From a virus (Duplodnaviria > Heunggongvirae > Uroviricota > Caudoviricetes): a stretch of 52,929 bases of DNA. This document shows, in pieces, positions 27,772 to 30,902 of this stretch (its first letter is position 1; each line of letters opens with the position of its first letter). The notes under the pieces are model-generated. The model was not told the origin of the DNA. It made no database searches and saw only the letters and a program-made list of their open reading frames with translations. The stretch lies in the IMG/VR virus record IMGVR_UViG_2850796239_000006. The stretch is one strand, 5' to 3'. The translations under genes were made by a program, and so were the position numbers.

Positions 27772-29528
27772 TGGCAAAAGTGGCTGACGGGATCCGCTAC
27801 GCCGAACGTGTTGTTGCAGGAGAAATTGTCGCTGGCGAATTTGTCCGTCTGGCCTGCCAGCGTTTTCTTGATGATCTGAAGTACGGCGAAGAGCGGGGGA
27901 TTTATTTCAGTGAACCCCGTGCGCAGCACATCCTGAATTTCTACAAATTTGTGCCCCATGTGAAAGGGGCGCTGGCAGGCCAGCCCATTGAGTTGATGGA
28001 CTGGCATGTATTTATCCTTATTAATATTTTTGGTTTTGTCATTCCGCTGGTGAATGAAGAGACCGGGGAAGTTGTCATGCGCAGCGATGGCAGCGGACGC
28101 CCGGTGATGGTGCGCCGGTTCCGGACGGCGTACAACGAAGTCGTCCGTAAAAACGCAAAATCAACCCTGTCATCGGGTATCGGTCTGTATATGACGGGGG
28201 CAGATGGTGAAGGCGGGGCTGAGGTGTATTCAGCCGCAACCACGCGTGACCAGGCCAGAATCGTGTTTGAAGACGCCAAAAATATGGTCAGAAAAGCCCG
28301 GTCGACACTCGGGCGGTTGTTTGATTTCAACAAGCTGGCGATTTACCAGGAGCAGAGCGCATCAAAATTTGAACCGCTTTCCTCGGATGCAAACAACCTG
28401 GACGGTCTGAACATCCACTGCGCCATTATTGATGAGCTGCATGCTCATAAAACCCGTGACGTGTGGGACGTTCTGGAAACGGCAACCGGTGCCCGTCTGC
28501 AGTCCCTTTTATTTGGCATCACCACGGCTGGCTTTAACAAGGAAGGGATTTGTTACGAGCAGCGCGATTACGCCATCAAGGTATTGCGAGGCTATAACAG
28601 CGACGTGGAGGGGGCGGTAAAAGACGACTCCTACTTTGCGATTATTTACACGCTCGATGAGGGAGATGATCCGTTTGATGAGACGGTCTGGCAGAAAGCG
28701 AATCCCGGCCTGGGCATCTGTAAACGCTGGGATGATCTGCGTCGTCTGGCGAAAAAAGCGAAAGAACAGGTCTCTGCGCGGGTGAATTTTTTTACCAAAC
28801 ACATGAATGTGTGGGTAACAGCAGAGTCTGCCTGGATGGACATGATTAAGTGGGAGAAGTGCGAATACATTGCCCCACGACATGAGCTGAAAACGTATCC
28901 CATGTGGGTCGGCGTTGACCTTGCTCATAAGATTGATATCTGCGCGGCGGCAAAACTCTGGCGAACCGATAACGGGCATGTTCATGCCGATTTTAAATTC
29001 TGGCTTCCGGAAGGACGGCTGGAACGATGCTCGCGGCAGCAGGCAGAACTTTACCGGAAGTGGGCGGAGATGGATAAGCTGATTCTGACGGATGGTGATG
29101 TTATCGATCATGCTCAGATAAAAAGTGACTTACTGGAATGGATTGGTGGTGAAAACCTCAGGGAACTGGGATTTGACCCGTGGAGCGCGATGCAGTTCAG
29201 CCTGGCACTGGCTGAAGAAGGGATACCGCTGGTGGAGGTTCCGCAGACGGTCCGCAATCTGTCAGAGGCCATGAAGGAAACGGAATCACTGGTTTATGCC
29301 GGACGTTTCCACCACAGCAATCATCCGGTCATGAACTGGATGATGTCTAACGTTACGGTAAAACCGGACAAAAACGACAATATCTTCCCGAATAAATCCA
29401 CTCCGGAAGCCAAAATCGACGGCCCTGTTGCGCTTTTTACGGCCATGAGCCGCTTTCTGGTAAATGGCGGGGACGTGAATGACTTTCTGTCCACGCTTGA
29501 TCCTGATGAGGACCTGTTAATTCTGTGA
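27771..29528 (+). CDS. Terminase large subunit
   Basis: 585-aa ORF with N-terminal ATPase and C-terminal nuclease regions; followed by portal. Confidence 0.85.
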   Translation: MAKVADGIRYAERVVAGEIVAGEFVRLACQRFLDDLKYGEERGIYFSEPRAQHILNFYKFVPHVKGALAGQPIELMDWHVFILINIFGFVIPLVNEETGEVVMRSDGSGRPVMVRRFRTAYNEVVRKNAKSTLSSGIGLYMTGADGEGGAEVYSAATTRDQARIVFEDAKNMVRKARSTLGRLFDFNKLAIYQEQSASKFEPLSSDANNLDGLNIHCAIIDELHAHKTRDVWDVLETATGARLQSLLFGITTAGFNKEGICYEQRDYAIKVLRGYNSDVEGAVKDDSYFAIIYTLDEGDDPFDETVWQKANPGLGICKRWDDLRRLAKKAKEQVSARVNFFTKHMNVWVTAESAWMDMIKWEKCEYIAPRHELKTYPMWVGVDLAHKIDICAAAKLWRTDNGHVHADFKFWLPEGRLERCSRQQAELYRKWAEMDKLILTDGDVIDHAQIKSDLLEWIGGENLRELGFDPWSAMQFSLALAEEGIPLVEVPQTVRNLSEAMKETESLVYAGRFHHSNHPVMNWMMSNVTVKPDKNDNIFPNKSTPEAKIDGPVALFTAMSRFLVNGGDVNDFLSTLDPDEDLLIL

Positions 29529-29675
29529 AACAGCTTATTACTGATATGACCGGGCTGATCGGTTTCGGTCTGCTCACTGCTGGCGTTTATCTGTATGCAG
29601 GTCTGCCAGCGTCTCTGATGTTGTCTGGCTGTTTGTTGCTGCTTTATGCACTGGTGGTGTCCATGAGGAGAAAAC

Positions 29676-30902
29676 ATGCTTCTTGATGCTCTGTTTCGCA
29701 GTGAGCCTCTGGAAAATCCCTCGATTCCGGTAACCGGAGAGGCCGCTGAGACGGATAATATTTTTGCCCGGGAAGTGTATGTCAGTCCGGAAACATCCAT
29801 GAAGCTGGCTGCTGTCTATGCCTGTATTTATGTTATTTCATCCAGTGTGGCTCAGATGCCCCTGCATGTGATGCGAAAAACGAATGAGCATGTTCAGCCG
29901 GCACGCGATCATCCGTTGTTCTGGCTCGTTCATGATGAACCTAATGCCTGGCAGACCAGCTATAAGTGGCGGGAACTGAAGCAGCGTCATGTGCTGGGGT
30001 GGGGCAATGGTTATACGTGGGTAAAACGCAATCGTCGTGGCGAGGTTACCAGCCTTGAATGCTGTATGCCATGGGAAACCACGTTACTTAACACCGGTGG
30101 GCGTCATACTTACGGGGTGTATAACGAAGAGGGTGCATTTGCGGTAAGTCCGGACGACATGATCCATATCAGGGCGCTGGGAAACAATCAGAAAATGGGA
30201 CTGAGCCCGATCATGCAGCATGCTGAAACCATTGGTATGGGAATGAGTGGCCAGCAGTATACCAGCGCCTTTTTTAACGGTAATGCCCGTCCTGCCGGTA
30301 TTATTTCTGTGAAAAATGAACTGAACGAACAGAGCTGGGGCAGGCTTAAAAATATGTGGCAGCGGGCGGTGACAGCGCTTCGCAGCCAGGAAAATAAAAC
30401 CATGCTGCTGCCTGCGCAACTGGATTACCGCGCTCTGACAGTTTCTCCGGTGGATGCTCAGATCATTGATATGACCAAGCTGAACAGGTCGATGATTGCC
30501 GGGATTTTTAATGTCCCGGCGCACATGATTAATGACCTGGAAAAAGCCACATTTTCGAATATTACGCAGCAGGCGATTCAGTTTGTTCGCTACACGATGA
30601 TGCCCTGGGTTGCGAACTGGGAGCAGGAGCTTAACCGTCGCCTGTTTACCCGTACAGAACGGGCTGCCGGGTATTACGTTCTTTTCAACCTCACGGGGTT
30701 GCTCCGTGGGACCCCACAGGAGCGTGCGCAGTTCTATCACTTTGCCATTACAGATGGCTGGATGAGCCGGAATGAAGCCAGGGCATTTGAGGATATGAAC
30801 CCGGTTGACGGTCTGGATGAAATGCTGGTCAGCGTAAATGCAGCAAATCCGTTGAATAACTTTAAAGATACAAAAGGCAAAGAGGAAAAGAACGATGAAT
30901 GA
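29676..30902 (+). CDS. Portal protein (HK97 family)
   Basis: 408-aa ORF in canonical position between terminase and prohead protease. Confidence 0.85.
   Translation: MLLDALFRSEPLENPSIPVTGEAAETDNIFAREVYVSPETSMKLAAVYACIYVISSSVAQMPLHVMRKTNEHVQPARDHPLFWLVHDEPNAWQTSYKWRELKQRHVLGWGNGYTWVKRNRRGEVTSLECCMPWETTLLNTGGRHTYGVYNEEGAFAVSPDDMIHIRALGNNQKMGLSPIMQHAETIGMGMSGQQYTSAFFNGNARPAGIISVKNELNEQSWGRLKNMWQRAVTALRSQENKTMLLPAQLDYRALTVSPVDAQIIDMTKLNRSMIAGIFNVPAHMINDLEKATFSNITQQAIQFVRYTMMPWVANWEQELNRRLFTRTERAAGYYVLFNLTGLLRGTPQERAQFYHFAITDGWMSRNEARAFEDMNPVDGLDEMLVSVNAANPLNNFKDTKGKEEKNDE

Follow-up and report, generated by a model that had tools for sequence, protein, structure and literature searches.

A conserved small gene for a predicted membrane hairpin between the terminase and portal genes of HK97-type late modules

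Does the short GTG-initiated open reading frame (ORF) that bridges the gene for the terminase large subunit (terL) and the portal gene in the IMG/VR virus record IMGVR_UViG_2850796239_000006 encode a protein, and what could such a protein do at that position? The record is a stretch of 52,929 nucleotides (nt) of Caudoviricetes DNA, referred to here, at its full length, as the window. In it, the small ORF runs from a GTG at 29525 to a last sense codon ending at 29683, followed by a TGA stop at 29684-29686, and its translation is MKQLITDMTGLIGFGLLTAGVYLYAGLPASLMLSGCLLLLYALVVSMRRKHAS. An earlier note on this DNA had described the frame as a possible 52-codon membrane ORF that overlaps the terL stop and the portal start and that may be there by chance; its coordinates, its translation and both overlaps were correct, and the number of sense codons is 53. 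The conserved frame and purifying selection described below support the view of a small membrane-protein ORF bridging terL and portal. The small ORF is a genuine coding gene under purifying selection in its own frame only, and the joint statement that it is a real gene, that its product forms a membrane hairpin and that its start is coupled to terL is, in our judgment, very probably correct.

Residues 1-52 of the window peptide aligned with the whole 52-position profile (1-52) of the PHROGs family phrog_7105, a full-length match (E 9.4e-20, 71.2 bits). The window copy fits this family in its length (53 amino acids (aa), for a family range of ~50-55 aa), in the core MKxLxxDxxGLxGFGxLxxGxYLxFG...G, of which it carries D7, G10, G13, F14, G20, Y22, L23, G26 and G35, and in its position after terL and immediately upstream of the portal gene. 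Searches of the peptide against Pfam and NCBIfam gave no significant match, and a sequence profile search against the PDB returned nothing. A word-indexed protein search reached only relatives above 88%, and an exhaustive phmmer and profile search, which went further, recovered 196 protein clusters, nearly all of them 52-53 aa long; the family also has a member from Actinobacillus (P0122). The window protein is 98% identical to copies in E. coli phages and 49-62% identical to copies of other genera, and distant members (from a Pragia prophage and from loci L087 and L088) also matched phrog_7105 at 1e-14 to 1e-18.

The gene is already known, in the form of RefSeq proteins identical or 98% identical to that of the window, of the PHROGs family and of annotated phage copies. 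The Prokaryotic Genome Annotation Pipeline (PGAP) places a 'hypothetical protein' (e.g., WP_240763358.1) at exactly the same junction, and a 601-nt junction query found matches in 930 of 5426 complete E. coli genomes, making the junction gene very common in this species. Hypothetical proteins are likewise annotated in Escherichia phages Evi, PhiR49_2 and vB_EcoS-689R5, Morganella phage IME1369_02, Edwardsiella phage EPP-1 and Klebsiella phage vB_VIPKPNMC05. The last three phages and Shigella phage SfV share an identical junction, in which a 53-codon ORF starts with an ATG in an ATGA overlap with the terL stop and ends 11 nt into the portal gene. The SfV homologue (L003, NC_003444, 2289-2450) is intact and is missing from the deposited annotation, which places the portal start at 2392; alignment with all relatives puts that start 48 nt further downstream, on the GTG at 2440. 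The window copy is unremarkable within the family, and the small ORF should be annotated as a gene for a small membrane protein of family phrog_7105.

Conservation of the frame in related phages, which the earlier note had proposed as a check, was followed in surveys anchored on the portal gene and therefore unbiased with respect to the small ORF. The 53-codon frame was intact, and not lost or broken by stops, in 79 of 80 IMG/VR loci with portals 87-100% identical to that of the window, the exception being fused to foreign upstream DNA. Of 61 loci from species-representative genomes, 59 were assessable, and these yielded 55 intact copies and one truncated copy. Intact copies span the Enterobacterales as well as prophages of Halomonas, Marinobacter, Salinicola, Idiomarina and Pseudomonas, with portals 57-62% identical in these non-enterobacterial prophages, and of the three loci (of 59) without a copy, two have the least trustworthy portal matches of the set and one has a portal that is only a fragment. 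The only clear truncation (L147, 2895-3011; 38 aa with a TTG start) was seen in Candidatus Symbiopectobacterium endolongispinus, a genome-decaying endosymbiont; in its free-living relative S. purcellii, the ORF is intact, 52 aa long and identical in five or more prophage copies (L097, L099-L102).

Selection on the frame was evaluated in a gapless codon alignment of 32 distinct sequences. The median pairwise ratio of nonsynonymous to synonymous substitution rates (dN/dS) was 0.34 in the frame of the small ORF (interquartile range 0.23-0.45; 349 pairs), compared with 0.97 and 1.67 in the two alternative forward frames. Column entropy was highest at codon position 3, lower at position 1 and lowest at position 2. 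The small ORF was also the sole frame open in all relatives, every other frame carrying stops in some of them. The protein diverges faster than its neighbors, with a dN/dS of 0.34 vs 0.11 in a nearby portal segment and a median identity of 0.51 vs 0.74. Because this is the only open frame, its length is conserved, its dN/dS lies below 1 in a frame-specific manner and its family match is full length, the ORF is more than the chance occurrence that the earlier note had allowed for.

The contrary reading, in which the locus is a chance ORF, a non-coding spacer, a stretch conserved on account of an antisense gene or a frameshifted N-terminal extension of the portal protein, draws on the shortness of the frame, on the GTG start and weak Shine-Dalgarno (SD) sequence of the window copy, on an antisense frame that happens to be open in the window, and on the SfV annotation, which lacks the ORF and starts the portal upstream. 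This reading is extremely improbable and, on the aligned sequences, is already refuted by the comparative data, given the frame-specific purifying selection, a length held constant across dozens of genera and the ATG starts at 47 of 56 junctions. The antisense ORF in question (29321-29800, minus strand, 159 codons) was rejected as the cause of conservation, as it is open in the window but, like all antisense frames, carries stops in relatives. A frameshift fusion or N-terminal portal extension was rejected as well, since at 27 of 58 loci, including the window, a stop closes the portal frame 0-7 codons ahead of the portal start codon, and no conserved slippery site was present. The internal Met8 was dismissed as a true or dual start; it is Val, Leu, Ile or Ala in relatives and hence not conserved.

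The earlier note had also remarked on the lack of a strong ribosome binding site (RBS), and in this it was broadly right: a GAGGA lies 12 nt upstream of the window start, with a predicted anti-SD duplex of -6.0 kcal/mol vs -9.4 kcal/mol at the portal start. What did not hold was the use of the weak RBS as a sign of chance, as a weak SD is a trait of the whole family. Across the 56 junctions, the start codon was ATG in 47 and GTG in nine, the codon used by the window copy, and the start overlapped the terL stop by 4 nt (ATGA or GTGA) in 43 and lay 0-9 nt after the stop in 13. Predicted anti-SD pairing in the family had a median of -1.0 kcal/mol at overlapping starts and -2.8 kcal/mol at adjacent starts, compared with -10.8 kcal/mol at portal starts; the window copy, with its SD-like GAGGA, is slightly stronger in this respect. 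The 3' overlap with the portal gene was 11 nt at 35 of the junctions, 4 nt at 14, 7 nt at three and 1 nt at one. The portal SD is embedded in this 3' part of the small ORF, where AGGAG or AGGGGG is kept in relatives, and its bases have a dual role as codons of the basic tail and as the RBS of the portal gene.

Translational coupling at overlapping stop and start codons is an established phenomenon, and ribosomes that end on terL would reinitiate at the small ORF. The weak RBS, a family trait that goes with the stop/start overlap, would then be explained by the coupling of the start to the terL stop. No plus-strand promoter-like site or terminator was found at the junction. It is likely that the small ORF is translated by termination-reinitiation after terL, with late and low expression that would not exceed that of terL. 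A single metagenomic phage lineage (L088 and L089) has the small ORF uncoupled from the upstream stop; two genes are inserted there after terL, and the detached small ORF is served by a GAGGT of its own, seven bases ahead of the start (-6.9 kcal/mol). The inserts (2691-3913 of L088 and 401-1623 of L089) encode a 109-aa unknown protein and a 271-aa protein matched by Glucosaminidase and Fer2 in precomputed Pfam results, an odd cargo for a head gene cluster.

The two hydrophobic segments that the earlier note had predicted were confirmed by hydrophobicity scores, though with different strengths. Hydrophobicity is strong over residues ~29-47 (Kyte-Doolittle 2.3, summed Hessa dG about -1.6) and marginal over the Gly-rich stretch of residues ~8-27 (Kyte-Doolittle ~1.5-1.7, Hessa +1 to +2). 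Residues D7, G13, G20, L23, G26 and G35 are invariant in the family, and K2, G10, F14, Y22, L31, L43 and A46 are nearly so. AlphaFold2, supplied with a 42-sequence alignment, predicted two helices (residues 2-25 and 27-52) with a single residue as the turn between them, at a mean predicted local distance difference test (pLDDT) score of 82.8. A Foldseek search of this hairpin against the PDB gave meaningless matches only (E>6), a 53-residue hairpin being too simple for a fold search. The window copy ends in the basic tail RRKH, which is longer and Lys/Pro-rich in Halomonas and Marinobacter, and the turn between the helices is uncharged; because of this tail and turn, the positive-inside rule predicts an N-in/C-in topology in which both termini are probably cytoplasmic.

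Which of its two neighbors the gene follows was apparent from loci where terL and portal have different histories. The divergence of the small protein follows the portal and not terL. The portal gene always follows the small ORF directly, and terL directly precedes the small ORF except in the L088/L089 lineage, where the insertion parts the small ORF from terL and not from the portal gene. In the Pragia prophage (L086) and L088, a terL of the ST64B type (60-69% identical to that of ST64B and 36% to that of the window) is combined with a window-type portal (69% and ~50% identical, respectively) and a window-type small protein, whereas ST64B, with the same terL type, has a different portal (29%) and a YmfR-type protein. 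In a mirror-tree comparison over 53 loci, which had been chosen by portal similarity, the distances of the small protein correlated with those of the portal at a Spearman coefficient of 0.57 (partial 0.55 controlling for terL; permutation p = 0.001) and with those of terL at 0.25 (partial 0.16).

The terL-portal slot has other occupants. In ST64B it holds Sb3, a 60-aa protein annotated as 'membrane protein' (phrog_502, E 2e-28), which is the same gene as ymfR of the e14 prophage of E. coli K-12, the respective orders being sb2-sb3-sb4 and aaaE (terminase)-ymfR-beeE (portal); the YmfR-type junction matched 1610 complete E. coli genomes. YmfR/Sb3 resembles the window protein as a two-helix hydrophobic mini-protein between the terminase large subunit and the portal. 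Profile cross-matches between the two are weak (window to phrog_502 1.3e-6, 13 orders of magnitude weaker than its match to phrog_7105; Sb3 to phrog_7105 0.055), and in an hhalign alignment of the two families, which had a 60% probability and an E of 8.5e-5 and spanned 49 columns, the conserved glycines fall in register. YmfR/Sb3 differs in having a PP turn and a WSW motif and in lacking the MKxLxxD N-terminus; its start lies 11 nt beyond the terL stop and is provided with an SD (GAGGT), and the portal that goes with it is 29% identical to that of the window. Membership of the window peptide in the YmfR family was rejected, as the motifs of that family (invariant P8, W23, Y26, A29-G30, C38 and W41-S42; near-invariant P27-P28 and W43) are absent from it, and it is instead a positional, possibly remote-homologous analogue. 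The profile alignment suggests that remote homology between the two families is plausible, bearing in mind that transmembrane composition inflates such scores.

A third mini-protein in this slot is orf3 of Pseudomonas phage D3 (phrog_4810), which is 54 aa long and hydrophobic with two helices; its overlaps are 4 nt with the terL stop and 8 nt with the portal start. Its cross-matches are weak (window to phrog_4810 3e-4; Pragia member 7e-3), and it differs from the window protein in belonging to a separate PHROGs family, in accompanying a ClpP-like portal/protease type and in lacking significant pairwise similarity. In HK97, terL and portal abut with no small gene between them. The mRNA of ymfR rises with that of other e14 genes under an SOS-inducing drug (PMC10012262). 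Literature searches on a small membrane protein between terL and portal, on Sb3, on ymfR and on ribosome profiling (Ribo-seq) of prophage small proteins returned gene lists and unrelated mentions, and no functional study was found. The pattern of three membrane mini-protein families in one slot, with the occupant tracking the portal, is not found in the literature searched, and it is possibly useful to phage biologists.

As to function, the gene belongs to the late (morphogenesis) operon of the phage, and the 53-residue helical hairpin, with its short basic C-terminal tail, would be inserted in the inner membrane of the host, its two ends facing the cytoplasm. At the cytoplasmic membrane, it may act as an accessory factor of the portal and head-assembly module, where it could tether or nucleate the portal ring, the nascent procapsid or the packaging vertex. 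We put forward such a late, portal-linked accessory role at the inner membrane only tentatively, as our best guess among several possibilities. In phage T4, the portal initiator gp20 is membrane-bound and is promoted by its chaperone gp40 (PMC9958956). The likeness to gp40 would be one of functional analogy: gp40 works on the portal at the inner membrane as head assembly begins, and the window protein is predicted to lie in the membrane and is linked to the portal. No relationship in sequence is expected, gp40 not being regarded as a homologue, and its gene is not at a terL-portal junction.

Several points weigh against this accessory role. It is a guess about function drawn only from synteny, co-variation and the T4 analogy. 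The co-variation with the portal could reflect recombination breakpoints and not physical interaction, the selection of the mirror-tree loci by portal similarity bears on the correlation itself, and the linkage is not absolute, as at L087 a window-type small protein whose gene overlaps the terL stop is found beside a portal that shares only 31% identity with that of the window. HK97 assembles portal-containing proheads and has no such gene, which excludes a core role in assembly for the protein and makes it probably dispensable. Additionally, the topology with two transmembrane (TM) helices is a prediction, given the marginal hydrophobicity of the first helix, and the embedded portal SD dictates some of the conserved basic tail (R-R or R-G), the codons there being doubly constrained. 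Searches of the literature also found no experimental evidence of translation, membrane insertion or phenotype for the family or its analogues.

Other roles have to be weighed against the portal-linked one, and there is a sizeable minority chance that the protein does something else altogether. One unlikely alternative is a late superinfection-exclusion or injection-blocking protein of the inner membrane, a moron that resides at the terL-portal junction by happenstance. T4 Imm and, in outline, HK97 gp15 are small inner-membrane proteins that block DNA entry by competing or sibling phages, small two-TM proteins of this membrane being typical of such functions, and PHROGs files phrog_502 under 'moron, auxiliary metabolic gene and host takeover'; an evolution faster than that of its neighbors and the absence from HK97 would also suit an accessory gene. 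Morons are typically patchy, however, whereas this position is fixed across very divergent phages and three families and its occupant co-varies with the portal. Moreover, the junction, with no promoter-like site or terminator, with overlaps at both ends and with a near-absent SD, does not allow the independent expression from the prophage that is usual for morons. No PADLOC match was obtained for the window peptide, Sb3 or D3 orf3, PADLOC not being built for such proteins. It is quite improbable that the hairpin is instead a component of lysis timing, i.e., a holin, antiholin or pinholin-like protein outside the lysis cassette. The ORF lies ~2.8 kb downstream of that cassette (25754-26748), past the HNH, terS and terL genes; it has no holin family match in Pfam, NCBIfam or PHROGs and no conserved dual-start motif, Met8 being variable as described above, and co-variation with the portal is not expected of a lysis protein. 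Such a role would nevertheless accord with the SAR-type (signal-arrest-release) endolysin used by this phage (25754-26287) and with the N-in/C-in two-helix topology and basic C-terminal tail predicted from hydrophobicity, charge and AlphaFold2, and the Gly/Ala/Thr-rich, weakly hydrophobic first helix recalls those of class II holins and pinholins such as S21 of phage 21. Those proteins are similarly small and share the two predicted helices, the predicted N-in/C-in topology, the weakly hydrophobic Gly-rich first helix and the basic C-terminus; they differ from the window ORF in the points of cassette, family match and dual start just given.

A different kind of explanation places the function in the act of translation, which would hand ribosomes on from terL to the start of the portal gene, or unfold the mRNA near the portal SD, and so set the portal:terL ratio, with the peptide having little or no function. 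The overlaps at both ends, the SD-less start and the embedded portal SD do resemble a coupling device, and the length is strikingly constant; even so, little weight can be given to such a relay as the whole explanation, because the peptide itself is constrained (the dN/dS of 0.34 and the invariant D7, G13, G20, L23, G26 and G35), the hydrophobic hairpin is kept below 50% identity and in two other PHROGs families, the portal gene starts from its own strong SD (median -10.8 kcal/mol), and HK97 couples terL directly to portal without a relay. Relay and peptide roles could coexist. Returning to the portal-linked role, a broader proposal would treat phrog_7105, YmfR/phrog_502 and D3 orf3/phrog_4810 as one functional class of ~47-70-residue inner-membrane hairpins that link the portal, procapsid initiation or the packaging vertex to the membrane. 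We regard this class as rather doubtful, and hold a similarly reserved view of its being hard-wired between terL and portal in many temperate siphophage head modules of Gammaproteobacteria. HK97-type phages are thought to assemble their heads free in the cytoplasm; if the proposal were true, the T4 gp20/gp40 idea of initiation at the membrane would extend to them, and the question raised is whether head assembly or packaging of HK97-type phages (such as SfV, ST64B, D3 or relatives of e14) has a membrane-associated step. If the protein were an exclusion or lysis-timing factor instead, the locus would represent an accessory gene fixed inside a core morphogenesis operon.

The features of the small ORF and of the surrounding genes, which form an HK97-type late module, are collected in Table 1.

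Table 1. Coordinates in the window of the small ORF, its elements and the neighboring late genes.
Feature	Position	Strand	Description
Small ORF	29525..29686	+	53 sense codons, GTG start, TGA stop; phrog_7105 family, predicted two-helix hydrophobic mini-protein
GTGA stop/start overlap	29525..29528	+	terL TGA (29526-29528) inside the small ORF start; putative termination-reinitiation site
First hydrophobic helix	29546..29605	+	Codons 8-27, MTGLIGFGLLTAGVYLYAGL; predicted from hydrophobicity, conservation and AlphaFold2
Second hydrophobic helix	29609..29665	+	Codons 29-47, ASLMLSGCLLLLYALVVSM; predicted from hydrophobicity, conservation and AlphaFold2
Portal Shine-Dalgarno AGGAG	29666..29670	+	Within small ORF codons 48-49 (Arg-Arg)
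11-nt overlap of small ORF 3' end and portal 5' end	29676..29686	+	Portal in +1 frame relative to the small ORF
terL (terminase large subunit)	27771..29528	+	Upstream neighbor; Pfam TerL_ATPase 1.2e-26, TerL_nuclease 3.6e-52
Portal gene	29676..30902	+	Downstream neighbor; ATG at 29676; Phage_portal E 2.5e-99
Endolysin, Rz, Rz1	25754-26748		Late module
HNH endonuclease	26791-27141		Late module
terS	27289-27771		Late module
S78 prohead protease	30895-31494		Late module, after portal; followed by the major capsid protein

The C-terminus of the upstream neighbor was also found to be conserved. The terL product ends in an acidic/hydrophobic tail, DFLS(S/T)LDPD(D/E)(D/E)LL(I/F)L (29439-29525 in the window; also in L002-L005 and L093), which is kept even between terL types otherwise ~36% identical and directly precedes the basic-tailed mini-protein. 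This tail is a possible interaction motif.

The small ORF itself is intact, but the prophage that carries it looks degraded or poorly sequenced. The major capsid gene (31509-32726) is broken into 31509-32123, 32129-32611 and a remaining 3' part, with lesions near 32096 and 32570 that correspond to two independent 1-nt deletions (GGGGG to GGGG) when compared with an intact, 98%-identical gene in E. coli KFu019; these represent either homopolymer errors of sequencing or assembly or a decaying prophage. The tape-measure gene (35744-38961) appears split as well, into 35744-37846, with matches to TMP_3 and Phage_HK97_TLTM, and 37708-38961, with a match to Tape_meas_lam_C, which may be another frameshift like those of the capsid gene. 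The prophage also holds a DDE_Tnp_1 transposase (18786-20009) and two IS66-family units (6466-9104 and 22644-25282), with DDE_Tnp_IS66 at 7956-9104 and 22644-23606 and HTH_Tnp_1 at 24608-25282. The second of these units stands immediately upstream of a DUF1327 gene and the endolysin gene, where the holin and the late promoter would be expected, and it may cut the late operon off from its promoter. No holin ORF was identified next to the endolysin gene. The endolysin (25754-26287, Phage_lysozyme) has an N-terminal Gly/Ala-rich hydrophobic stretch that is typical of SAR endolysins.

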